Below, piece by piece: positions 725 through 48,097 of a stretch of DNA of 64,000 bases. Every line of letters begins with the position of its first letter. Positions within the stretch are counted from its first letter, which is position 1. A program made the position numbers and the translations under genes. The notes beneath the pieces are model-generated. The model saw only the letters and a program-made list of their open reading frames with translations, made no database searches and had not been told where the DNA came from. Source of the stretch: Escherichia coli (lineage in GTDB: Bacteria; Pseudomonadota; Gammaproteobacteria; Enterobacterales; Enterobacteriaceae). Where the stretch lies: NCBI GenBank assembly GCA_032372955.1, contig GCA_032372955.1_4725.1; one strand, written 5' to 3'.

Positions 725-2014
725 ATGGCCCGCATCTCTCTTTTTGATAACGTCAATAAAAACGCATTCGAACTCGCTTTGCTGAGCGCCGAAGATCTTC
801 TTGCGACAATTCCAGCGGAGCAAAATGATCCCAACGCAGAAATCGAAGAGGACGAAGTTGAGTTGGTGATTCGACGCACCGACGAGACGATCGATGAATC
901 CAGCGAACTGGCTGAAATTGCAGTGCGTACTTCAGCAACGCTGGAAGATACCGCATACATGATCGCACCTACGATCCCTGAAGCACGTGCGAGCGACATC
1001 GCCCTTATCCGTCAGATTGCTTCGACGTCAGCAGCTAACCTGGGGATGTCTGATGAAGACATGTTCCAAGCTGACGATCGTTTGGTGGAAGGGCAAGCTA
1101 TTGTGCTGGAAGGCTTTAAAGAACGCGCCGCGCAAGCGTTATACGCAGTTTGGGTAATCATTGCGAACATGGCTGAACAGTTATGTAAGCTGATTCAGCT
1201 GCTTTTCAAAAACCTTGCGGTAGCGTATAAAAAAATTACCGATGTTGCAACCGCTGTAAATAAAGGCGAGCGTCACATCAAACAACTAAATAAACCGACC
1301 GGGAATATGATTAGCATGTTCCCTAACGCAAAAACGGTTAACGCGTTGGAGATTCGTAAACATATTGAGCAGTTGGCGGCATCCACACAAGCATCCTCTT
1401 TTTTACTACTCCAAACCGACGACATTAACAAGAAAGTTAATAAACTAACTGATTTGACGACACTTGCCGATATTCTGGACGATTATATTTACGCTATCAA
1501 GCCTGCGTTAAAAGGACTCAAAATACCAGAAAGCGGTGGGAAACGTTACGTCGTTAAAGGTCTCGACGCTCTTATGGCTGAGAAAGATACCATTAAGGCC
1601 TGCGCGCTCGTGAAGAATATTCAGATCGAAGTGGAAGAAACCGCGACTGGTAGTATCGAAAACGCGAACATTTTCAATAACGACGACGAATTGAAAGCCG
1701 CACTGACCTCGTATCTTAACGTATTTCGTATTGTTGACCCTGCATATTTCCGCCAGACCGAAAGTTTAACGAGTACTGTCGAACGTACTGCTAAACTAAA
1801 CGGTATGAAAATTAAAACTAAATGGGACGGTATGCTCGACAATCTGCCGGAAGCAGATCGTGAAACCGTTCGTCCTTATATAAGCGCCATCTCAGAAATG
1901 GCGCGCTTGAGCGCGGTATTAGCAGCTAAGATCCTCCGTGTTGCTAACCGTCAATATGCGGATGCTGTATTTGCTGCTGCGAAATACTTCGATGCCGTAA
2001 CCGAAAAAGCATAA
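725..2014 (+). CDS. hypothetical protein, member 1 of left-end paralogue trio
   Basis: 429-aa ORF, AAGGAA RBS 6 nt upstream; shares IRQIASTSAANLGM and following helix with the next two ORFs. Confidence 0.7.
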   Translation: MARISLFDNVNKNAFELALLSAEDLLATIPAEQNDPNAEIEEDEVELVIRRTDETIDESSELAEIAVRTSATLEDTAYMIAPTIPEARASDIALIRQIASTSAANLGMSDEDMFQADDRLVEGQAIVLEGFKERAAQALYAVWVIIANMAEQLCKLIQLLFKNLAVAYKKITDVATAVNKGERHIKQLNKPTGNMISMFPNAKTVNALEIRKHIEQLAASTQASSFLLLQTDDINKKVNKLTDLTTLADILDDYIYAIKPALKGLKIPESGGKRYVVKGLDALMAEKDTIKACALVKNIQIEVEETATGSIENANIFNNDDELKAALTSYLNVFRIVDPAYFRQTESLTSTVERTAKLNGMKIKTKWDGMLDNLPEADRETVRPYISAISEMARLSAVLAAKILRVANRQYADAVFAAAKYFDAVTEKA

Positions 2015-2024
2015 CCACCATGTC

Positions 2025-2056
2025 CCTTCCTCCAACCCAACAGGGAAGGAGGAAGG
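2025..2056 (+). terminator. conserved CCTCC-armed hairpin element followed by TTTATG
   Basis: CCTTCCTCC-AA-CCC-AACA-GGG-AA-GGAGGAAGG, read from sequence. Confidence 0.5.
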
Positions 2057-2162
2057 TTTATGGCGTTGGTATCCGGTTATCTTTTGACTTCTGAATCAAC
2101 GGTTCAGAAGGTAAATGGCGGACATGATCACCCGCCAAGATTTTCCTACGTAGGAGTTCCAA

Positions 2163-3464
2163 ATGGAAAACGTGTTACAACAACCCATGACATCGTTGTT
2201 TCAAGGGATTGATGATGAACCTGTAGAATCGTTCGGTATCGCTGGCAACGTTCTCGATGCCAGTAATATTGAGAATCAGTTTCACTCAATCGACGAAACA
2301 AACACGGTGATGAAAGAAGGTGAACAACACCTTCAAACATTAAATAAACTCAGGCTGGATATTGTCCCAAACATGGCTGAAGTTGAAGAACGCGATATCA
2401 GCACCATCAAACATATCGCATCGACCGCAGCAGCCGGAATGGGAATGGACCCAAACCACATCATCGAGGGCCTGGAAGAGGAAACTTCCAGCGGGATGAG
2501 CTTGAACATGGAAAGTTTTGACAAGACCGCAAAAGAAGCAACCCGAGCATTATGGCTTTACATGAACGAATTGTACCGCTACGCGATCGATATCTGCAAT
2601 CGTTGTTATCGTCGATTCGTTCGTCAGGTGAAGCCGTTATTAAAGAAAGCGGCTGCGTTGAAAACTATTTCCGAATACGATGTTAATGAAGATAACGCAT
2701 TCTGGGAGAACTTTCCTTACAACTGGCGATATCTTCATCCGAAAGGCGGTGCGGTAAACAGTATTGCTGATCTACGGCAAACCGCAGAAAACATCGTAAT
2801 GAACACAGGAATCCTCGCAGCATGGCATCGTCAACTCGATCCGTTATTAATGCAGCTACTAAAAGCACCGTCAGTGGATAACAAAGAAGGTATCGCTGCA
2901 GAAAACGAAGCCTGTTGGGAGAATATTCTCGAGGTCATCAACGATGCGTTATGCGAGAAGCCGTTAAAGCCTACCGGAACAGACGATATCGTCGTTGACG
3001 TACCTGTTGGTGCTTCCTATCTTAAAGTACACAACATCGAAGACGCAACAGGAACGCAATTCAGCGTTGTGTGGGAAGCCGTATCTTTCCAATCGGCAAA
3101 AGATGGATTCCGTTTCTTACCGTTAAACGATGTTATCGACGGAACCAACGCGATCATCAACGCATTAAGTACGTTATGGTCTACGCTACGACAGTTGGAA
3201 TTTAAACGTTGTCTTGAAGCAAGCCTTGCCGACCAGGACGAATGGATTCAACCTTACGAGCGTTTGCTACAACAGATGGACAACAACGATACCGCATCAT
3301 CCGCTATCGTTCAACGTGTGGGTATCGCGCGTAACGTCGTCGGCTTCCAGGCGGTTGCTTTTGCCCGATTCCTGTTAACTGTCTGCGACGTCATCGACGG
3401 TCTTAACGATTATCTTGACGCGCATCTCGAACTTGAGGAAACCAGCAATGCTGCAGACCTATGA
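2163..3464 (+). CDS. hypothetical protein, member 2 of left-end paralogue trio
   Basis: 433-aa ORF, AGGAG RBS; IKHIASTAAAGMGM motif paralogous to the 725 ORF. Confidence 0.7.
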   Translation: MENVLQQPMTSLFQGIDDEPVESFGIAGNVLDASNIENQFHSIDETNTVMKEGEQHLQTLNKLRLDIVPNMAEVEERDISTIKHIASTAAAGMGMDPNHIIEGLEEETSSGMSLNMESFDKTAKEATRALWLYMNELYRYAIDICNRCYRRFVRQVKPLLKKAAALKTISEYDVNEDNAFWENFPYNWRYLHPKGGAVNSIADLRQTAENIVMNTGILAAWHRQLDPLLMQLLKAPSVDNKEGIAAENEACWENILEVINDALCEKPLKPTGTDDIVVDVPVGASYLKVHNIEDATGTQFSVVWEAVSFQSAKDGFRFLPLNDVIDGTNAIINALSTLWSTLRQLEFKRCLEASLADQDEWIQPYERLLQQMDNNDTASSAIVQRVGIARNVVGFQAVAFARFLLTVCDVIDGLNDYLDAHLELEETSNAADL

Positions 3465-4554
3465 TGGACAGATTCAAGCGTTAAGCTTGTTAAAAACATT
3501 ACCTGTGCCAGAGACAGCAACGCAACGACAAATTCACCAGCTTATTTATCAGCAGGCGGGCGGTATGCTGCCGACCAGTTATACCACAGAAAGTGCTGAT
3601 CTCCTCACGATGGAATCGTACAATCAGCTTGCGATGAAAATTATCAAAGCTATCATCGATGCGATCTGGACAACGTTGCGGAACATTACTGCGTTTATCG
3701 CCAGGTTTATCGATCGTAGTCGCGCACTACAGCTCGAACTCAGCAATATCCGTCGTCACTACACAAAAGCCGTTGGTCGTAAACCCATCGCGCAAAGCTT
3801 CGAAGCTTCGACGACGCTGGCCCCACACTTACGGTATGGGAACAGTTTTGGGTTCGATTTCACAACCGGGAATACGCTATACAAACAGAATTTAGCAATC
3901 GCTGAATATCTCTTGTCTTCGTCGTTCCGTGATGATTTCAAGCAGTTCGCTAATACGTTAGATAGAGCGCTCGACATTATCTTAAAACAGACGGATACCG
4001 CATTAATCGATGTGATTAACCGTGATGCGTACACGTTATTGCATAAAGTCTACAGTACGCTGAACGAATCGAGACTTGTCAATGTAACGTTACTGGGCAA
4101 CCGTACGCTACGACTCGATCAGGTTACCGCCTCAGGTTCCGGATCAATTCAACAGTCCCTCGCCATTCAATCTGCACGGTTTGAAGTCCAGGATGTACCG
4201 TCCATTGAACGGGATATGGTGGTTACAACGCCAACATTAGAACAAGTTGGTGTGCTACTCGAGTCTGTAAATACGGGTGTTGATTTGCTGGTTAGTTACC
4301 ATCGTAAAAAGTACGCCAACGAGTTACTCGAAATCGCAGGGAATCTACAAGCAAAACTTAACGACGTTTATCGTCAACAAGGTCAGTTGTCAGTTGCTAC
4401 TGCTTCTGATGATGCTATGGTAGCCCTTTCTCGATACCTTACAGCGTATACCGCGTGGATCAAGGTGCCGCTTGTGGGCTATGCCGAGTTCTTTACGAAT
4501 TCAACAGCGGCTATGCTTGATGTCTCTCGCGAGGCGCTGAAATATTACTTTTAA
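3448..4554 (+). CDS. hypothetical protein, possible third paralogue
   Basis: Start moved to ATG 3448 (GAGGA RBS); the track start at 3415 overlaps the upstream gene by 50 nt. Weak IHQLIYQQAGGM similarity to neighbours. Confidence 0.6.
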   Translation: MLQTYDGQIQALSLLKTLPVPETATQRQIHQLIYQQAGGMLPTSYTTESADLLTMESYNQLAMKIIKAIIDAIWTTLRNITAFIARFIDRSRALQLELSNIRRHYTKAVGRKPIAQSFEASTTLAPHLRYGNSFGFDFTTGNTLYKQNLAIAEYLLSSSFRDDFKQFANTLDRALDIILKQTDTALIDVINRDAYTLLHKVYSTLNESRLVNVTLLGNRTLRLDQVTASGSGSIQQSLAIQSARFEVQDVPSIERDMVVTTPTLEQVGVLLESVNTGVDLLVSYHRKKYANELLEIAGNLQAKLNDVYRQQGQLSVATASDDAMVALSRYLTAYTAWIKVPLVGYAEFFTNSTAAMLDVSREALKYYF

Positions 4555-4569
4555 GAGGAATAACGCTTT

Positions 4570-7500
4570 ATGAAAAAATCGTTAGCTGATCTGATGCGTA
4601 AGTCGCATCTTAACCTGGAAAGCGGCGATACACCTATCGAAGTCAAAGCAACGCTTTCTACCGATAAAGAAGAGCAAGTGATCGCATTACCTACAGCGGC
4701 ACGGCCAGACAGCATCGAAGCGACGATCGAATCAGATACGCTCGAGGAAGGGGCTACCGTTGATGACGCCGTTCGTGTGATTCGTAGCACGGATGAGAAC
4801 GGTGAGGATGTCGTACGTGCTGTTATTGTGACCCGTCCTATTGATGGTAGTTTACGAATTCGTTTCACACCGAGCAGCGGTGGTGTGACCATGGAAGACG
4901 GTAACGATGTTCAACCGTTCGTTCTGATCGCGGTACCGACCGCACCTGGCGAAGAGCCGAAGAACCCATATCCGGCAAACGCGCCAACCGAAACACCGGC
5001 ACCGAAAGTGACCAATGATCCGACCGTTAACGCTGACCGTGACAACCTGAAGAACAAGATTCAGGATGCGGCTAACGCCATCGACCCGACCAACCCAGCA
5101 CAAATCGAACAGGCAGCACAACCTGCGGAAACCACCGAAGGTGTTAAAGGTAACGTCGTCGAACCGGAAAAAGCAGAACCTGTTGCTGAAACAGCGGCTG
5201 CGGCAGCCGAGGTGACGCCAGAAACCAAAACAACGGAAGAACCCATCAAAGTCACCGTGATTAAACGTGTCGTGGAGAAAGTAGAAAAGGTTGAAGATAA
5301 CGTCGCTGACGAACAACCTGTTGTCGACGCTAATGACGGTAATACCGGTGAGCAGAAAGCCGAAGCAGTTGCCCAGGAAACAGAACTGCAAGGCGATGTT
5401 GAGGTCGATAACGCTGACGAAACACCCACCGAGGACAGCACCACCGAACCTGCGTCCGAAGAACCTGCTAACACCGACGCTGACGCTGGTACCACCGACG
5501 ACACAACCACCAAGGGTGATGAAAACACCAAAGGTGACGATGATGAAGACGACGAAAACGAAGAAGATGAAGATCTGAAACAAGAGTCGTTCGAAATTCA
5601 TCAAGAGCTGGAAGCCCGTGGTGTATTAGATGTTCCTGTTGTTGAACAGCGCGCATCGGTTATTCTCGGTGAAGGTGAAACAGATGTAACCGTCATTGAA
5701 ACAGAACAACCGTACATTCCTGGCACCATGGTGGTACGTCGTCTTGATGGGGATAAGAGTGTTATTGTTCGCCGTACTCGTTACGCTGAACGCTTTAACG
5801 CTGATGGTCAGGGTGAAGCGATCGCCATTGTCGACCCTACTCTGCAAGGCGAACTGAAAATGGAATTCCGTCCGGCTGAAGGTCCGATGGAAAGCTTCGA
5901 GATTCGTCCTGAAATCAAAGACGAATACATCATGGAATCGTACAAACAGCTTGATATCGCACTGAATAGCGATCTCAATCTGGAAGACGGGGAAAAGCAA
6001 CCAGGTCGCTTTAAACAGATTCTGAAATCGGTTTACGAAGCGGTCGCGAAGTTCTTAAAAGCCCTCGTGGCACGTTTGAAAAATCTCTTTGGTGTTAATA
6101 AGAAAAAAATCGAAGGGAAGGCCAACAAGCTGACCAAAGAACAACGCACAGCACCGGTGATGAAACTGCTTCCTCCGCCGAGTAATACTTCGGATGAAAA
6201 GAAAGTCAACGTCGAATGGAACAAACTCGATACGCTGCTTGCGAACGACGCTAAATCCGTCGATAAAATCGTAAACGCGGTAAAAGACAGCAAACGTATC
6301 GCTGAAGCATCCCGTAAGTTCTTCGACCAGCTGAAGGATCTTAAAGAAGGCGAAAGTCCAAACGCTGATACGGACATGCTGACAGCAACAACAATGTCTG
6401 GCGTGGCCGCGTTCGGACATAGCGCCGACGCCGCTTTAGACGGTATTCGTAAGTTCCGTGACGAACTTAGCGCCATGAAACAGCAGGATGATGCTGTACC
6501 GTCTAACGTTAGCGTTGATATGCTGATCGATGCGTCAACGAAACTGTTTAACGAAGACCTTCTGAAAGCAGCTACACAACTTCAGGAGACAGCTGAACGG
6601 CTAATCCGTGACCTCGATAAGAGCGGTAGCGATTATGATGTTGGCTACATCGTTAAACGCACGCGCACACTGATGAACTTTGCGACAACAGCATGCACCG
6701 TCTACGGATTCGCTGCGAAAGAACTCGGCGATGTTACCGTTCGTATACTCACCGCTGTTGCAGCGGCTGATAACGGCGATCTCAAACAGGAAGAGTACCA
6801 GGATGTTGCTGGTGAAAACGATCCGGTTGTAACCGTCGAGACATTGGAAGGCGATGCTGGTACTCGTGTTGTTGCTGAGGCGGAAATCGTTGACGATCCT
6901 GCGGTGGTGGAATTCGTTGAGCGTGCTGAAGAAGCGCAGCGAAATCTGGCTATCGGTCGCCATGCGGTGAGCGCGGTGGAAGGTATTCTGGTAGCGGCAC
7001 GCGAGATCGGTCCTGATAACTTCCAGGGTAACGTCGAAGCTACCGAAATTGCGATGGAAGGATTCATGGATACCGTTAAGAGTGCGGTCAACCGTATCGG
7101 TAACTGGATTGAAACCAACCACCGTTACTATACCGCCGCTACGGCTCCATGGGATAAGCTGTTCGCCGAAACGCAGCAAGCGCTGGCCAAAGCGCGTCGC
7201 GGTAACCCAGCAGCGGAACGGATTATTCTGAAACGTTTCATCCGTCATCTTACCATCGGTGGTGAACCTGTTACCGATGTGAAGAAGCTCATCGCTGCGT
7301 TGGGTGAAATCAAAATGCTTGGTAACATGACGCGTGAATTAATCGTTGCTATCGATCGTGAACTCAGCGAAGTGCGGAAGAGCAACCAGTCCGAAACATC
7401 CGCTGGATCGGTTGTTGGTCTGAAGCGTATTCCTATTCAGAAATGGGATAAGCTTATGGTCGCTACCGTACAGCCGTGGAAAGACAGCGATCGTAAAGGC

Positions 7501-7956
7501 GTTGGGTCTAAAGCGTATCTTGGTGAAACGCACATCGTGAAGGTGAGCGCGACCTATGCGACAACGCGTAACAACCCGAACGAGGAAGCAGCGAAACTGA
7601 TGCAGTGGATCTACACCGGTATCAATCGCCAGTTTACGGTTTCTGACGACCTCACCAGTGAGGAATTACCGGTAGCCACTATCAGTGAACTGGAGGCAGT
7701 GCTGCGTGCGGCTCGTGAAGCGCATGAAGCTTGGCTTATTGCTGACAACGCCATGCAGACCCTGCGTTCAATCGATAAATTCCTGGATAGCGAACTCAAC
7801 GTTGAGAACGATGTTAATAATGTCGTTAACTACGGTATTGTTCTCGGCCTGGAAGATTGGTTGTTCCATCCGGCATTGACGTTATGGCAACAGTTCAATA
7901 AACCGATGCAAGCGGTGCTTTTCCTTATCAAAGCCCATTGCGGTGCCTACAAGTAA
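4570..7956 (+). CDS. large hypothetical protein with acidic Thr/Pro/Glu-rich low-complexity region (virion or internal head protein candidate)
   Basis: 1128-aa ORF, AAGAGGAA RBS; residues ~120-340 are strongly acidic low complexity (…GDDDEDDENEEDEDL…). Confidence 0.7.
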   Translation: MKKSLADLMRKSHLNLESGDTPIEVKATLSTDKEEQVIALPTAARPDSIEATIESDTLEEGATVDDAVRVIRSTDENGEDVVRAVIVTRPIDGSLRIRFTPSSGGVTMEDGNDVQPFVLIAVPTAPGEEPKNPYPANAPTETPAPKVTNDPTVNADRDNLKNKIQDAANAIDPTNPAQIEQAAQPAETTEGVKGNVVEPEKAEPVAETAAAAAEVTPETKTTEEPIKVTVIKRVVEKVEKVEDNVADEQPVVDANDGNTGEQKAEAVAQETELQGDVEVDNADETPTEDSTTEPASEEPANTDADAGTTDDTTTKGDENTKGDDDEDDENEEDEDLKQESFEIHQELEARGVLDVPVVEQRASVILGEGETDVTVIETEQPYIPGTMVVRRLDGDKSVIVRRTRYAERFNADGQGEAIAIVDPTLQGELKMEFRPAEGPMESFEIRPEIKDEYIMESYKQLDIALNSDLNLEDGEKQPGRFKQILKSVYEAVAKFLKALVARLKNLFGVNKKKIEGKANKLTKEQRTAPVMKLLPPPSNTSDEKKVNVEWNKLDTLLANDAKSVDKIVNAVKDSKRIAEASRKFFDQLKDLKEGESPNADTDMLTATTMSGVAAFGHSADAALDGIRKFRDELSAMKQQDDAVPSNVSVDMLIDASTKLFNEDLLKAATQLQETAERLIRDLDKSGSDYDVGYIVKRTRTLMNFATTACTVYGFAAKELGDVTVRILTAVAAADNGDLKQEEYQDVAGENDPVVTVETLEGDAGTRVVAEAEIVDDPAVVEFVERAEEAQRNLAIGRHAVSAVEGILVAAREIGPDNFQGNVEATEIAMEGFMDTVKSAVNRIGNWIETNHRYYTAATAPWDKLFAETQQALAKARRGNPAAERIILKRFIRHLTIGGEPVTDVKKLIAALGEIKMLGNMTRELIVAIDRELSEVRKSNQSETSAGSVVGLKRIPIQKWDKLMVATVQPWKDSDRKGVGSKAYLGETHIVKVSATYATTRNNPNEEAAKLMQWIYTGINRQFTVSDDLTSEELPVATISELEAVLRAAREAHEAWLIADNAMQTLRSIDKFLDSELNVENDVNNVVNYGIVLGLEDWLFHPALTLWQQFNKPMQAVLFLIKAHCGAYK

Positions 7957-7971
7957 TCCGTGCACATAAAC

Positions 7972-7993
7972 AGCCCGCCCTTCGGGGTGGGCT
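7972..7993 (+). terminator. hairpin with TTCG loop followed by TTTATGCTG
   Basis: AGCCCGCCC-TTCG-GGGGTGGGCT, 16 nt after the stop of the 1128-aa gene. Confidence 0.5.
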
Positions 7994-8044
7994 TTATGCT
8001 GTCGACCATCATGTGATATCTTATCTTTCAAACAGGAATCTGCG

Positions 8045-8428
8045 ATGACACGTGAAGCAAAATTTCTTTCACTCGCACTTAACGGTGCGCAGCAACAGAC
8101 ATGCTTGGTAGCGGCGTGCCCGCGACATTCAGTACCCGGTATGTATATTTGCCGTATTAACCCACATACCGCACACGAAACCGTCGTGCAGATTCCTGTT
8201 GCGGCACTACCGGAAGGTACCATCAAACCAATCATCCAAGGATTGCCGTTAGAAGCGCTATACGCTGTTTTAAACAACGAAATAGAAACATTAATGGAAA
8301 CGTCCAATGAAACAGATAAAACGCGTCTAGGGCTTGTTAGAGAGCTTCTACATAGCAGTCTGATTCATTATACCGGATATCGACAACAAGGAGGTGAGGA
8401 AATTAGCGAGGACGACACCGATGCCTAA
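8045..8428 (+). CDS. hypothetical protein
   Basis: 127-aa ORF; stop overlaps the next start (ATGCCTAA). Confidence 0.5.
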   Translation: MTREAKFLSLALNGAQQQTCLVAACPRHSVPGMYICRINPHTAHETVVQIPVAALPEGTIKPIIQGLPLEALYAVLNNEIETLMETSNETDKTRLGLVRELLHSSLIHYTGYRQQGGEEISEDDTDA

Positions 8429-17277: not shown

Positions 17278-17426
17278 CGTAGGGAAAAGTTATGCGGCAT
17301 TTTTAGTGTTGTATCACGACCTCAATAACGGTAAGTGTTTACTGATACTATAGTGGCGCATGCACGCGTGTACGCTATGGTCTATCGACCGACTTATATA
17401 AGTTAATTCTGTAAAGGATACTTTCA

Positions 17427-19649
17427 ATGAATGATAAAACCCTTCTTAGCCAACAGGTCGCGGCCACTCGCCAGTTCCTGACCGCTAATGGTAGCAAACC
17501 AGCAGACAAAGGTCTGGAGAACACCTTCCTGTCTATGGAATCTGCTTCTAAGGTTGATTTCAAATCCATGGACAAACTGGTTAACGAAATGGATGTTAAG
17601 AGCTTCAGCAGCGACATCCGTAAAGCAGAAGAACCGGTTCTGTCCATGCTGGGCTTCGAAACCACCACTCCGGAAGAGAAGCAGCGTATTGAAGAACAGC
17701 TGTTCACCATGAACGCACAGCAGGCTCGTGCAGCAGCACTGATCATGCTGGCTCATGGCAACCCGGTGGAATATGCTAAACAAGCACGTTCCATGAACAT
17801 CAGCACCACTCCGTCTGGCCGTGAAGTTGACAGCTCTAACTTCGTCATGATGGCCGCCGATTCCTGCGGTTGCGAATCTGAAGAACTGGTTCAGCTGTCC
17901 TACGACCAGAAAGAACTGCGTGACATGATGCCGTACTCCGTTGTGTTCAACGTGAAGGCTTCTCGTCTGAGCCGCATGGGTAACGAACTGTACAACACCA
18001 TCGTTCTGGCTCCGAACCAGATCGGTTACGACGTATCTTTCCGTCGTCCGCTGGTGTTCAACCACCTGCGTCGTAACGCTGACGGTACTCCGGCTGATTG
18101 GGTACGTCGTCCGCTGCTGGATGCGTTCATGTACAACGACGTTCTGTCCAACGACGTGACCGATCTGCATCCGATCTATCGTGCTGACGATGCTAACGCG
18201 CAGTACTTCGTTGACAAAACTATCGTTGCTCCGCGTGACATCGAAATTAAAGGCGTAACTTACAAAACGTCTTACCTGGCCGTTGATAAACTGATCGACA
18301 TGATCGGTATTGCTGAAGACGATAGCATCCTGGCTAACGGTTACAGCGACAACACCGACGCGCTGGACGCTCAGATCACGCTGACCAAAATCCTGGTGGA
18401 AATCAAATCCACCAAACACAGCAAAACCTCTTACGTACCGTTCGACGTATCTGGTCTGATCACCAACGGTTTCCAGAAATCCCTGGAAGGCGACTTCCGC
18501 AAAATGACCCTGGCGTTCGACACCCACTCCATCTTCGTTGATGAGAACACCGTTGACGTTAAAGGTGCACGAGCTGAAGCGCTGCAGGACATCATCGATT
18601 CGAAATCCGCTGCTCAGCTGGCAATCGAAGTTTACGGTTCTTCCAACGTAGAGAAAGCCGGTCTGCGTGTTAACGGCGCTAACGCTGAACTGTATCGTCT
18701 GGTCGATCGTGACAACATCGAACAACCGCGTAAGGGCGAAGAGTTCAAACAGCTGGCTGAAGACCTGAGCTTCAAACTGGTTGGTTACGAACTGCGTATC
18801 CGCCGTAACAACAGCAACCGTCGTGAGCGTGGTAAGCACCTTGACTTCAACATGAAGCAAGAACGTTACGCAATCGGCCTGCTGGCTCCGTTCTCCATTC
18901 CTCGTCCGCTGGATTGGGAAGAAAACGCTGCTGACCTGGACGTTCTGATCCAAGCTGCTAACGCACGTTTCGACAACCTGATGGTTGAGAAACTGTTCAG
19001 CTACAAAGACGCACTGAAAGCGGTTGCGACCTCTCGCTTCCGTCAGTTCGGCGACATCCAGATCGAAGGTTTCGGTCGTTACCTGATCCGTCCGTGGTTC
19101 GAAGAAATCAATCTGGACCTGGAGAAATCTGTTCAGGGTACCACCACTGCAGAACGTCGTGCTGAAGTGTCCGCTGCGATCATGAACGTGATTCGTGAGA
19201 TGGCATACCGCATGTACTCCGAGTCTGGTTATCAGCCAGCTCTGCAGCTGCTGTCTTCCAACGCTGATGAGAAACCGCGTTGCGTAGTAGCAACTGACAA
19301 CTACATCCCGCAGTTCCTGCAGACCGATGGCGATTTCCGTACCGTTGGTGTGAGCTTCAACTTCGTGGTTGTAGATAACCCGAACGTCATGCTGCGCGAT
19401 AAGATCTTCGTGACCCTGTCTCGTGGTATCCAGGGTTCTCCGGATCCGCTGACCTTCGGTATGTTCCTGTATGTACCGGAACTGGTATCTGTTGCTCAGG
19501 TTACCCGTAACGGTCAGGTTTCTAAAGAAACCATGGTTCAGCCGCGCTGCCGCTTCGTTAACAACTGCCCGCTGCTGGGTCTGATTAACGTTGTGAACCT
19601 GCGTAAGGTCTACACTGAAAACATCAAGCTGCCTGTTCAGACTAACTGA
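17427..19649 (+). CDS. abundant virion structural protein, probable major capsid protein
   Basis: 740-aa ORF, AAAGGA RBS. Extreme bias to high-expression codons (ctg, cgt, ggt, aac, ttc), unlike neighbours; size fits jumbo-phage capsid proteins. Identity not verified. Confidence 0.55.
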   Translation: MNDKTLLSQQVAATRQFLTANGSKPADKGLENTFLSMESASKVDFKSMDKLVNEMDVKSFSSDIRKAEEPVLSMLGFETTTPEEKQRIEEQLFTMNAQQARAAALIMLAHGNPVEYAKQARSMNISTTPSGREVDSSNFVMMAADSCGCESEELVQLSYDQKELRDMMPYSVVFNVKASRLSRMGNELYNTIVLAPNQIGYDVSFRRPLVFNHLRRNADGTPADWVRRPLLDAFMYNDVLSNDVTDLHPIYRADDANAQYFVDKTIVAPRDIEIKGVTYKTSYLAVDKLIDMIGIAEDDSILANGYSDNTDALDAQITLTKILVEIKSTKHSKTSYVPFDVSGLITNGFQKSLEGDFRKMTLAFDTHSIFVDENTVDVKGARAEALQDIIDSKSAAQLAIEVYGSSNVEKAGLRVNGANAELYRLVDRDNIEQPRKGEEFKQLAEDLSFKLVGYELRIRRNNSNRRERGKHLDFNMKQERYAIGLLAPFSIPRPLDWEENAADLDVLIQAANARFDNLMVEKLFSYKDALKAVATSRFRQFGDIQIEGFGRYLIRPWFEEINLDLEKSVQGTTTAERRAEVSAAIMNVIREMAYRMYSESGYQPALQLLSSNADEKPRCVVATDNYIPQFLQTDGDFRTVGVSFNFVVVDNPNVMLRDKIFVTLSRGIQGSPDPLTFGMFLYVPELVSVAQVTRNGQVSKETMVQPRCRFVNNCPLLGLINVVNLRKVYTENIKLPVQTN

Positions 19650-19736
19650 ACTACCGTAGCTGCTTCGTTGGACGATATTCTTGACGACAACGTTGCGGAT
19701 GGTTTCATTGCACCGGACATTCATCCGGCACCGTGA
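19650..19736 (+). other. in-frame 28-codon open extension after the capsid TGA stop
   Basis: No stop from 19650 to TGA at 19734-19736, same frame as capsid ORF; encodes TTVAASLDDILDDNVADGFIAPDIHPAP. Confidence 0.4.
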
Positions 19737-45682: not shown

Positions 45683-46225
45683 TTAGCCAACAACGCTAAC
45701 GGTCGGTTTCACGAAGCCATCAGCTACGTTATCCGCCAGAACGGTTGCCAGGTCATCTTTCGGTGCAGCTGCGTAGGTCAGTGCAACCTGCAGAGTGCCG
45801 GTATATACCAGGCCATTCTCGATCGCATTCAGAGTTACCTGACCAACAGTACCTGCAGACAGCTGGAAGGTTTCTTCATTGATTTCACCGGTCAGGGAAG
45901 CCAGACCGAATTTGGTGACCAGCTTGCTTACCAGCTCGGAAGCCTTAATGCTGTCGGTACCGTGCGGCAGTTCGAAAGTAACATCGCCAGTTACATCAGC
46001 GAAAACTTCGGACAGAGCCAGACGATCGTAGTAGAACTGCTGAGTACCCTGCAGGTTAGCTGCTTCAGCTGCAGCATCCAGCTGAATAACGGTGTTCTTT
46101 TCATGTTCGGAAGACGTCTGCGGAGTACCGAACTGCAGTTCTTCTTCGGTCAGCGTGCGGGTTGCTTTGGTGTTGATAAGATCAAGCAGAAGGGATTTCG
46201 CTGCTTTGTTAAAGTCTAAGGCCAT
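45683..46225 (-). CDS. abundant small protein, short member of the YYDR/LxYTG paralogue family
   Basis: Start chosen at internal ATG (MALDFNK) with GAGGACA RBS; high-expression codon usage like the capsid gene; motifs FYYDRLAL, TKFGLASLT, LVYTGTLQV. Confidence 0.65.
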   Translation of the reverse strand: MALDFNKAAKSLLLDLINTKATRTLTEEELQFGTPQTSSEHEKNTVIQLDAAAEAANLQGTQQFYYDRLALSEVFADVTGDVTFELPHGTDSIKASELVSKLVTKFGLASLTGEINEETFQLSAGTVGQVTLNAIENGLVYTGTLQVALTYAAAPKDDLATVLADNVADGFVKPTVSVVG

Positions 46226-46366
46226 GATAATGTGTCCTCTGATTTTTGATGGTCGAAAAGGAGATTCGGAGTCGTTCTCCATAATATTTACATTAATATA
46301 AAATATATTAATTTCTGTAAACACTTACATCTTTTGAGAGTGATGTAACAACCATAGAGGTAGAAA

Positions 46367-47260
46367 ATGGCAACTCAAGTTTCGCTTACTTTAAAAACAC
46401 CTTGGCAACTTATCGTTGATGAGATTAACAAACTCAACGCCGACACTGGTGCCAGCTTCCAATACACCGACCTTAAATACGTTCTTAAAGAAAAGAATCC
46501 TTCTGCTCCAGAAGCAACTTTAACGCTTAGCCCTGGTGATGGTACCCCTTACTTCAATAACCGTGATGTTACCTACCATCGTCTGGATCTGGCTAAATGG
46601 TTCCAGAAAATCGCTGTACGTGTTAACGTTACTGCTGACACCACCATCGGTGATGTGGTTGACCTTGTAGCTCAACGCTACGGTATGATCACACCGACCG
46701 GTGAGAAGTTCCTGGATAAAGATAAAGACATCAAAGCCGATACGTTATCTAATCCGGTTACCTTCAACGAGCATGGTATCCAGACGATCACCCTGGAAGC
46801 TAAAGAAGATTCGTTGGCGTGGTACGGCTCTGTTCAAGTTAAAGTTTATAACACCACGCTGGATCTGGCTAACATCATCAAGGTTACCAATCTGGGTAAC
46901 TTAACCTACGTTGATGAAGGCGACGGCACCAAAACGTCAGCACGTCTGTTAACCTATCCGTTAGACTTCAGTACTTACACCGCAGGTTTACAAGCTATTA
47001 CCAGCAACGATACCAAGATCGATGCAGGCTTAGCAGGTAACCTGACTACCCTGATCAAAGAGCAGACTGGTGTAAGTGATGATATCATCAATGAACTGAA
47101 AACCAATCTGCAAACAGCTACCTTTGTCTATAACGGTGCTACCACCGGGTCTACTGACAAAGGTGTTAACGCTACGTACAGCAATGTGCTGGTGCTGTCG
47201 TTAGCTGACGGTACTCACACCTACGGTAAAGCAGTATTCGGTTATAACGTTTCCGAATAA
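46367..47260 (+). CDS. paralogue family protein, member 5
   Basis: 297-aa ORF, AGAGG RBS; motifs VTYHRLDLA, QRYGMITP, LAWYGSVQV; divergent from the 45683 gene. Confidence 0.65.
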   Translation: MATQVSLTLKTPWQLIVDEINKLNADTGASFQYTDLKYVLKEKNPSAPEATLTLSPGDGTPYFNNRDVTYHRLDLAKWFQKIAVRVNVTADTTIGDVVDLVAQRYGMITPTGEKFLDKDKDIKADTLSNPVTFNEHGIQTITLEAKEDSLAWYGSVQVKVYNTTLDLANIIKVTNLGNLTYVDEGDGTKTSARLLTYPLDFSTYTAGLQAITSNDTKIDAGLAGNLTTLIKEQTGVSDDIINELKTNLQTATFVYNGATTGSTDKGVNATYSNVLVLSLADGTHTYGKAVFGYNVSE

Positions 47261-47276
47261 TTTTAATTAATCTCTC

Positions 47277-47308
47277 CCTTCCTCCTTCCCTGTTGGGTTG
47301 GAGGAAGG
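47277..47308 (+). terminator. conserved hairpin element followed by TTTATG
   Basis: CCTTCCTCC-TT-CCC-TGTT-GGG-TT-GGAGGAAGG. Confidence 0.55.
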
Positions 47309-48097
47309 TTTATGTTTGTGATTATTCTTCTCTTTTATAATTTCTAATGATAAGATTAAGTACCTGGAGTAAAAGTTTACAGATGTTGTAAATGTATTTG
47401 GAAAGTAAAATTTCCACGACCTCGGCCCCTTCGGGGGACGGGGGAGGAGCGAAGTCCTTTAGAGACGAGCAACAGGATAACTCTAAGAAAAAGAAAAACT
47501 AAACGAGCGAAGCGAGTTTATGTTTTTATCCTTAGAGTTATCAAGCTATAAGCGTAGCGTTAGCGTATAACGGTTATGTCGTATACGAATGCAATGAGTA
47601 TAGACGAGATACTCTGATGAACAACGTGAAGAAGAGTATCACAAATGTTTTTTGAGTTATCCGGATTTAACTAGCATGTAACGAAGTGTAATGCACAGAT
47701 GACATGTGTTACCGTTAAGGTAGTAAACACATGTTATCCATTGTTTTGAAGATAAGCTTATTAACTTACTTTTAAATCAATTTAAATATACAAACAACTT
47801 AAACATACCAAGATAAAACAATTGAACCTAAGATAAACAAGATAACTTAGACAATACACTTTTAACGAATACAGATAACATCTTACTTAAATCAAAATAC
47901 CTATCCTCGTTTACCTTCCTTGCTTGCAACACCTCTTCTAAATCCATCCCTTCTTAAGAAACAACAAAACCCTTACTGTAACACAAATCCTTTCACGACT
48001 ATATTACCTAAGTGATGCGTACGTACGATGTTCGTATTGCGTCAAATAGAACTCAATACGTTGTTTAATTAACGTGAAAAACAGAGGAACTTTTTAA
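47309..48097. other. 789-bp AT-rich non-coding region with inverted and direct repeats
   Basis: No ORF of 60 aa or more; 12-bp inverted repeat 47476-47487 / 47531-47542; five AGATAA copies 47750-47880; direct repeat CTTACTT(TT)AAATCAA at 47765 and 47882. Confidence 0.6.
48000..48015 (+). promoter_or_regulatory. conserved promoter-like motif TATATTACCTAAGTGA (copy C)
   Basis: Preceded by TTTCACGAC as in copy D; ~80 nt upstream of the 48098 gene cluster. Confidence 0.45.

Follow-up and report, generated by a model that had tools for sequence, protein, structure and literature searches.

Escherichia phage vB_EcoM_Goslar is a nucleus-forming jumbo phage of the family Chimalliviridae with a genome of 237 kb. 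Its proteins gp53-gp58 were all detected by LC-MS/MS (liquid chromatography coupled to tandem mass spectrometry) in CsCl-purified virions; AlphaFold3 predicts for each of them the fold of the Pfam family PF12699 (phiKZ_IP, phiKZ-like phage internal head proteins), with membership stated for gp53 and gp58, and their locus is syntenic with phiKZ gp92-97 (bioRxiv 10.64898/2026.04.21.720040). The phiKZ members of the family (gp92-gp97, gp162 and gp163) include a row of tandem paralogs set between gp91-type vertex-binding and gp98-101-type neck genes, which ends in a long protein with an acidic N-terminal half (gp97: 816 amino acids (aa), pI 4.05). Here we describe a locus of the same layout at positions 725-7956 of a 64,000-nucleotide stretch of DNA (the window; contig GCA_032372955.1_4725.1 of GenBank assembly GCA_032372955.1, recorded as Escherichia coli). 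An initial annotation had read four open reading frames there, ORF1 to ORF4, as tandem paralogs that might be ejected or internal virion proteins by analogy with phiKZ. The block is a tandem array of diverged PF12699 helical-fold paralogs, the orthologs of Goslar gp57, gp56, gp55, gp54 and gp53, and it is very probably the distal portion of an operon for internal head proteins in a Goslar-type chimallivirus, with products packaged at tens to hundreds of copies. Since the PF12699 assignment, synteny and virion data are published for Goslar, the phiKZ analogy is a real and already documented homology; the Goslar orthologs are described as virion PF12699 proteins, and the element is not of a new kind.

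Proteins of this family are known to leave the capsid. Once packaged and injected, a Goslar gp58-sfGFP fusion associates both with the early infection vesicle and with the DNA injected (PMC10541120). In phiKZ, gp90, gp92, gp93, gp95 and gp97 are injected, whereas gp89 and gp162 stay inside the head, and gp97, the positional counterpart of ORF4, is packaged and injected and colocalises with gp93 (bioRxiv 10.1101/2024.03.24.586471). Several phiKZ members are present at 100-200 copies, whereas Goslar has one dominant member, gp58; an inner body is visible in phiKZ by low-resolution electron microscopy, and none was seen by cryo-electron microscopy (cryoEM) of Goslar. Paralog family A of SPN3US (the ejection proteins gp53 and gp54) resembles the window in having adjacent, head-abundant PF12699 paralogs with long, better-conserved N-terminal regions, but has just two members, at more than 600 copies each (PMC10052503). 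The internal proteins IPI-III and Alt of T4 offer a functional analogy only: they are targeted to the head by their N-termini, undergo prohead-protease cleavage after Glu and are injected alongside the DNA, yet they are small and basic and share neither sequence nor fold with the large, helical, acidic proteins of the window.

A megablast search with positions 725-7956 returned Goslar as the sole phage match, at 95.4% nucleotide identity over the full query, and the phage in the window is an isolate distinct from Goslar at that level of identity. The four ORFs, all on the forward strand, are one-to-one orthologs of Goslar_00056, 55, 54 and 53, each annotated as ‘hypothetical protein’ in the Goslar record, in the same order and of the same lengths except for three additional residues in ORF4. 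ORF1 (725-2014, 429 aa) is the ortholog of gp56 (98.8% amino acid identity) and an internal head protein of PF12699 fold in the gp55/56/57 subgroup; its paralog ORF2 (2163-3464, 433 aa) corresponds to gp55 (96.3%); ORF3 (3448-4554, 368 aa) corresponds to gp54 (97.3%) and is a PF12699 protein with a short N-terminal region; and ORF4 (4570-7956, 1128 aa versus 1125 aa in Goslar) is the ortholog of gp53 (96.7%), a modular virion protein. Reading frame 2 is open from base 2, and positions 2-715 of the same strand encode the C-terminal 237 aa of a gp57 ortholog (97% identical to Goslar gp57 residues 202-438), truncated by the left edge of the window; gp58, the dominant family member, falls beyond that edge. 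The ORF coordinates of the initial annotation therefore hold, but the block begins before 725 with a further paralog, and the ‘left end’ at which it had been placed is that of the window and not of a genome.

An all-against-all phmmer comparison of proteins from the window, from Goslar and phiKZ, from the Goslar-like contig L003 (66%-diverged) and from three sister-clade contigs (L005-L007) resolved four sequence groups: gp58, gp55/56/57, gp54 and gp53. ORF1 and ORF2 match each other with E values of 3e-8 in BLASTP and 3e-8 to 1e-9 in phmmer, and full-length Goslar gp57 matches ORF1 at 5e-18 and ORF2 at 9e-10. Together with sister-clade proteins of 461 aa and 452/453 aa, gp57, gp56 and gp55 are mutually significant at 1e-7 to 1e-35, and the similarity among ORF1, ORF2 and gp57 is colinear across about 200 residues. 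The shared N-terminal architecture initially noticed in ORF1 and ORF2 is borne out by this paralogy and by the family alignments, in which I[RK][QH]IAST.AA..GM, followed by [LM]E[GS]F and an A..A..A.W amphipathic helix, occupies invariant columns, the tryptophan included. In ORF1 the signature extends from IRQIASTSAANLGM (aa 95-108) to VLEGF (aa 127-131), at positions 1007-1117 (+), and is invariant in alignments A2 and A3; the first long helix of the AlphaFold2 (AF2) model, H128-179, opens at L128-E-G-F. ORF2 carries IKHIASTAAAGMGM and NMESF (M116). The signature maps to positions ~13-150 of the PF12699 profile, where the matches of gp57- and gp55-type proteins fall, and the phiKZ signature SRQAAAFMHVGMES resembles IRQIASTSAANLGM...LEGF of the window, although pairwise sequence similarity between phiKZ and the window is essentially nil. 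ORF3, which the initial annotation had included with a ‘probably’, has only a TMESY (aa 54-58) plus amphipathic helix element in common with ORF1 and ORF2, and its pairwise similarity to either is not significant by BLASTP or phmmer, so the caution of that wording was well placed. In the sister clade (L005-L007, 4100-14998) there are two paralogs of the gp55/56/57 type (461-463 aa and 452-453 aa) versus three in Goslar-type phages, and in L005 an extra 98-aa ORF at 7041-7337, with no relatives detectable among the compared sequences, lies between both.

Family membership was scored by scanning 24,736 Pfam families, with a gathering threshold of 27 bits for PF12699. Wherever it was matched, PF12699 was the top family and the alignments were colinear. 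Goslar gp58 scores 82.4 bits, and the gp54 ortholog of L005, which matches ORF3 at a phmmer E value of 1e-33, scores 61.5 bits over its full length. Among gp55-type orthologs the scores are 28.2 bits (L006, c452) and 20.8 bits (L005, c453), while gp57 reaches 26.8 bits in L003 and 21.3 bits in Goslar. Taken alone, the C-terminal domain of ORF4 reaches 26.5 bits, its residues 810-1064 aligning to profile positions 72-319; ORF3 reaches 20.5 bits (residues 64-370 against 89-384 of 387), and gp56 orthologs align end to end at 19.8 (sister clade) and 17.8 bits. Orthologs of ORF2 and ORF3 thus pass the gathering threshold, whereas ORF4 is a borderline case and ORF1 does not reach it in sequence. The AF2 model of ORF1 (predicted template modelling score, pTM, 0.57) has a confident helical core at residues 160-429 (predicted local distance difference test, pLDDT, 70-90), and a Foldseek search of this model against BFVD recovered the family fold, with 33 matches at E<1e-3 and probability 1.0. 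All of the named matches are jumbo-phage virion or internal head proteins, among them those from Moabite, Ea35-70, Noxifer, 201phi2-1, Psa21, pTD1 and RP12, with PhiPA3 slightly above the cut-off; they include entries named ‘internal head protein’ and virion structural proteins of 201phi2-1 and Noxifer.

Gene order agrees with this assignment. The genes from Goslar gp63 to gp48 parallel phiKZ gp87-gp101 gene for gene, running as in phiKZ from a gp91-like vertex-binding protein through the internal head protein paralogs, the last of them long and acidic, to neck proteins like gp98/99/100/101. The vertex-binding protein of this row, Goslar gp59, matches Pfam PhiKZ_gp91 (E 1e-46), and the window ORF at 9973-11289 matches Phage_H_T_join_2 and H_T_assoc. 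Because homology to PF12699 is detectable, the interpretation is stronger than the analogy first offered: family matches, synteny, fold and the published Goslar data all bear out the phiKZ-type comparison. Homology to unrelated enzymes was not found, as Pfam and PDB searches detected no enzyme domain in the block and the PDB yielded nothing significant by sequence or fold. ClyA-type pore-forming toxins (NheA, SmhA and PaxB) appeared in the PDB fold search at E 0.4-1.7 and probability <=0.13, which we do not count as evidence. The Avs5 trigger (JADA) was ruled out as an internal head protein, being an early-expressed protein. A tblastn search of GenBank phages with gp58 and ORF4 returned only Goslar and a single weak Pseudomonas phage match.

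Evidence that these proteins are virion components comes from their Goslar orthologs, which are 96-99% identical and were detected in purified virions; the designation as internal virion proteins was to this extent correct. Estimated copies per virion are ~330 for gp53, ~70 for gp54, ~46-50 for gp55, ~55-60 for gp56, ~50-52 for gp57 and ~2150 for gp58, based on label-free quantification (LFQ) with an error of ~50%, and LC-MS/MS coverage of gp53-gp57 is 31-63% (gp53: 63%, 132 peptides) (bioRxiv 10.64898/2026.04.21.720040). We propose that the proteins would be produced late in infection, be incorporated into the prohead, probably via their conserved N-terminal regions, and remain there, in tens to hundreds of copies, once the capsid is filled with DNA. 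At least some may then exit the capsid with the DNA and reach the early infection vesicle, by analogy with Goslar gp58 and phiKZ gp90, gp92, gp93, gp95 and gp97. Paralogy, family and fold membership, synteny and the presence of the orthologs in virions are shown; a packaging role for the N-terminal regions, ejection of the window's own members and any action on the host are inferred. Ejection with the DNA is somewhat more likely than not for ORF4, the counterpart of phiKZ gp97, and less likely for the low-copy paralogs.

Several observations weigh against the assignment as internal, partly ejected head proteins. Neither ORF1 nor ORF2 has any PF12699 match in the Pfam scan, and the same is true of the gp56 ortholog of L003 and the b461 ortholog of L006; ORF3 and ORF4 themselves score under the gathering threshold, so that the membership of the window proteins is supported via orthologs, fold prediction and synteny. 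At the sequence level the gp55/56 subgroup is isolated, as an exhaustive search with a profile of gp56 and gp55 found just 9 representatives among 1.84 billion, all from Goslar-like phages. The matches of a word-indexed profile search were confined to orthologs of gp56 and gp55, and PHROGs gave a single marginal, partial match for the four ORFs, between ORF1 and a family whose function is unknown (E 0.0011). Local hhalign comparison of shallow profiles (gp58, gp55-57, gp54, gp53 and phiKZ gp92-97) left the four groups unlinked, with probabilities <41%, a comparison that is uninformative in that the phiKZ members themselves were not linked. Evidence for injection is limited to Goslar gp58 and the five phiKZ proteins named above. 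In Goslar, micrographs and cryoEM reconstructions show no inner body, and the name ‘inner-body proteins’ therefore needs qualification; unassigned helical-bundle density adjoins the vertex-binding complex (bioRxiv 10.64898/2026.04.21.720040), and the copy numbers of gp54-gp57, near 55, would also fit fixed positions at the 11 non-portal vertices.

Alignment with 16 homologs and phmmer searches against the sister clade show that ORF4 is a composite of an N-terminal module, an acidic linker, a beta-rich module, a lineage-specific variable helical module and a PF12699-like C-terminal domain. The N-terminal module (aa 1-120; 4570-4929, +) starts with LADxMR..L.ES and contains a beta-rich stretch that ends in G.LRIR[FY].P..V.MEDG; it is present in both clades, and the conserved phmmer domain spans residues 1-180 (E 1e-21 to 1e-23 against the sister clade). 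The acidic low-complexity region had been described as about 220 disordered residues, and its extent (aa 121-335; 4930-5574, +) and acidity (pI 4.05; 59 D+E versus 16 K+R; commonest residues E, A, T, D, V and P) are as claimed. AlphaFold places no secondary structure in residues 183-359, at low confidence; disorder is nevertheless an incomplete description, as the region holds two conserved blocks, PGxExKNP[YF]PANAPTE..AP.VTN.PT (aa 126-152) and VVDANDGNTGE[QR]KAE..A.ETEL.G (aa 252-275), both mostly invariant across clades that are ~30% identical overall. The region also contains a D/E tract of variable length (aa 271-330). There follow an LKQESF junction (aa 336-341), a second beta-rich module (aa 358-435) and PMESF (aa 439-443), together at 5575-5931 (+). 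Counterparts of the second beta-rich module in the sister clade lie at residues 609-683, 903-970 and 1182-1260 (E 1e-8 to 1e-10), and there the module immediately precedes the C-terminal domain.

The middle helical module of ORF4 (aa 455-745; 5932-6804, +) runs from MESY to DLKQEEY, with an LKQEEY junction at 738-743, and has no phmmer match in the sister clade and no Pfam match. In the full-length AF2 model (mean pLDDT 37) its helical bundle at residues 550-730 is the sole confident part (pLDDT 70-90); at such a mean, a BFVD search with the full-length model is meaningless. The C-terminal PF12699-like core (aa 747-1128; 6808-7956, +), with AMEGF at aa 828-832, matches the sister clade at E 1e-48 to 1e-49. 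Homologs in the sister clade are 1089, 1375 and ~1665 aa long and carry, inserted at a different junction, one to three other helical modules, each opening with [DE]LKQE[SG][FY]. A Pfam scan of the middle module, the extra sister-clade modules and phiKZ gp97 gave no PF12699 match (for phiKZ gp97, hmmscan), and the modules therefore cannot be called PF12699 repeats. The motif ME[SG][FY] occurs five times in long ORFs across the six frames of the window, always within ORF2-ORF4, and in the models it sits at the start of a long helix. The modularity of gp53, the two conserved acidic-region blocks, the confinement of ME[SG][FY] to the block and the variable cassettes in gp53 and gp56 are new here, and no description of them was found in the searched parts of bioRxiv 10.64898/2026.04.21.720040. 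We count the modular map, the linker's retention and its conserved blocks, and the variable cassettes as leads and not discoveries.

Sequence variation in these proteins is localised. ORF4 departs from Goslar gp53 in its acidic tract and in the variable middle module, and among 108 gp53 sequences of the Goslar clade the variable parts are the D/E tract and residues ~570-720. The cassette spans approximately aa 540-735: the alleles P0138-P0141 are 46-50% identical in the middle module, with flanks 97-99% (C-terminal) and 89-97% (N-terminal) identical. In gp56 of Goslar-like phages, the N-terminal 150 residues are 86-98% identical and the helical core (aa 151-360) 66-82%; in gp55 conservation is uniform. 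Such a pattern could mean that the paralogs combine a conserved packaging part with a fast-evolving cargo part, a proposal to which we assign a low probability. The pattern would suit injected proteins that encounter host factors or host immunity in the early infection vesicle and that evolve by diversifying selection or by exchange of cassettes; the conserved blocks of the acidic linker and the junction motifs would then have a role in packaging, or in partial processing by the prohead protease.

One alternative, which we consider unlikely, is that the proteins belong to a prohead core or scaffold, their acidic and N-terminal parts being cut by the prohead protease and expelled at DNA entry, with processing that is at most partial. 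On this account x-[LM]-E followed by [SGD], and LKQE followed by S, would be cleavage sites after Glu, and ORF4 a polyprotein. Precedents exist: PF12699 paralogs of phiKZ are proteolysed during packaging (bioRxiv 10.1101/2024.03.24.586471), phiKZ gp93 being cut at SLE-13, and SPN3US gp53 and gp54 shed propeptides of 125-137 aa at A-X-E (PMC10052503). The confinement of ME[SG][FY] to ORF2-ORF4 at the start of long core helices and the [DE]LKQE[SG][FY] opening of every extra sister-clade module would also suit such sites, and the N-terminus of the major capsid protein (MCP) contains SME38 and GCE150, each followed by S, with ~157 residues missing from the Goslar MCP map. On the other side, cleavage in phiKZ follows S/A/G-X-E, whereas position P3 of the recurring motif is not S, A or G in most copies in the window.

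Peptides from Goslar virions bear on processing. The part of Table S4 of bioRxiv 10.64898/2026.04.21.720040 that was examined comprises peptides beginning A to EI, so that any peptide whose first residue after a cut is S or G falls outside it. Within this range, the N-terminal module of gp53 (mean peptide area ~33,000) is represented by AVIVTRPIDGSLR (area 11,000) and AARPDSIEATIESDTLEEGATVDDAVR (1,960), and AARPDS...DDAVR of that module is present in virions. From the acidic region come AEPVAETAAAAAEVTPETK, at 79,000 above the protein mean, and AAQPAETTEGVK (662), and from the middle module AATQLQETAER (287,000). Two peptides cross motif sites uncut, EIRPEIKDEYIMESYK spanning IME-SY (17,600) and EIGPDNFQGNVEATEIAMEGFMDTVK spanning AME-GF (541). 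These peptides mean that the acidic region is retained in virions and that neither of the spanned sites is fully cut, and full removal of the acidic and N-terminal parts is accordingly disfavoured. An N-terminal peptide of gp55 is also present, which speaks against the scaffold proposal as well.

Other members are more equivocal. Among the A-EI peptides, N-terminal ones of gp56 and gp57 were not found, though peptides of the mature regions are present, and N-terminal peptides of gp58 are weak (areas 4,880 and 9,180 versus a mean of ~124,000); both patterns are as expected if those N-termini were removed. The MCP propeptide peptide is similarly weak and occurs in modified forms (1,260 and 2,160 versus a mean of ~61,500). 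Being present in modified form, it is no clean control, and for any peptide with M, N, Q or C an exact-string zero is accordingly unreliable. No peptide starting directly after a motif Glu was found among the searchable A-EI peptides; EIRPEIK... and EASSTLAPHLR were rejected as prohead-protease sites, since both follow Phe and were taken as chymotryptic-type cuts. Such a pattern agrees with some members being partially processed, as in SPN3US, and proves nothing for ORF1-ORF4. The description of the block as protease-processed is thus unsupported by the peptides examined, with the N-terminal module and acidic region of gp53 present in virions and two candidate motifs spanned intact.

A second alternative, which we likewise regard as improbable, holds that the gp54-gp57 orthologs, ORF1-ORF3 included, are fixed structural proteins of the inner capsid at the 11 non-portal vertices, five at each, and account for the unassigned helical-bundle density around the vertex-binding complex instead of being free or ejected cargo. 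Their copy numbers (70, 46-50, 55-60 and 52) are close to the 55 of the modelled vertex-binding proteins, with the caveat that LFQ estimates for known 55-copy proteins span 16 to 194; estimates with an error of this order (~50%) weaken the argument. The low-contour density beside the complex is called ‘reminiscent of the PF12699 fold’ (bioRxiv 10.64898/2026.04.21.720040), but it was left without assignment in the map. The gene of the vertex-binding gp59 stands in the same row, and yet several family members are ejected in phiKZ (bioRxiv 10.1101/2024.03.24.586471) and the variable core of gp56 would be unexpected in a tightly packed structural protein. That the block is a set of unrelated hypothetical proteins, alike only in being helical, alanine-rich and acidic, is highly improbable, for although neither ORF3 nor ORF4 is significantly similar to ORF1 or ORF2 in pairwise comparison and hhalign probabilities are low, the similarity of ORF1, ORF2 and gp57 is significant and colinear with invariant motif columns, independent matches fall repeatedly on one Pfam family of 24,736, the fold-search matches are specific and the phiKZ synteny is conserved.

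Scans for sigma-70 promoters and terminators remained at background level. A GC-rich hairpin lies between ORF1 and ORF2 (2116-2137, +), where the Goslar annotation has a putative terminator, and a second hairpin, CCTTCCTCC ... GGAAGGAGGAAGG, at 2025-2056, lies upstream of it, directly past the ORF1 stop codon. Past ORF4, again at a putative terminator of the Goslar annotation, is the hairpin AGCCCGCCC-TTCG-GGGTGGGCT (7972-7994, +). The start of ORF3 is most likely the ATG at 3448, judging from a GAGGA 9 nt upstream and the same choice in the Goslar annotation; the ORF listing begins at an upstream TTG, 3415. Between the last internal-head-protein gene and the tail-terminator gene, an ORF of 127 aa (Goslar gp52; 8045-8428) is conserved in the sister clade in a version of 124 aa, has no counterpart between phiKZ gp97 and gp98 and is without a Pfam or PHROG match. 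Further along, GC content dips to 0.41 at window positions 46001-48000, with neighbours at 0.45-0.50.

Codon usage in the window sets the MCP gene apart (17427-19649, +; 740 aa), in which 0 of 119 Leu and Ser codons are TTA, CTA or TCA. In fifteen other large genes of the window these codons make up 20% of Leu+Ser (range 10-34%; P ~3e-12 for the capsid gene), and within the block their share follows virion abundance, from 10% in ORF4 (~330 copies) through 20% in ORF1 and 28% in ORF3 to 34% in ORF2. The absence of TTA, CTA and TCA from the capsid gene leaves its codon-aligned antisense frame open over 766 aa (17424-19724, −), and the pattern could reflect extreme codon optimisation or a constrained antisense frame. 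Many homologs (P0017, P0022, P0029, P0035, P0038, P0045, P0115, P0120, P0123, P0164 and others) are filed under Salmonella, E. coli, Shigella and Enterobacter isolate records, in some of which the longest contig measures 233-250 kb. It therefore seems that Goslar-like genomes of approximately whole-phage size were assembled along with enterobacterial isolates, suggesting either carrier-state infection or contamination of the cultures.

PF12699 proteins are present in thousands of copies per chimallivirus virion, and several of them are injected into the early infection vesicle. For experiments on this family, the block described here provides a domain map of the 1128-aa protein, evidence that its acidic region is retained in virions and two conserved blocks that can be mutated. 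The confinement of natural variation to specific helical modules points to the parts of these proteins that are most likely to be host-facing.

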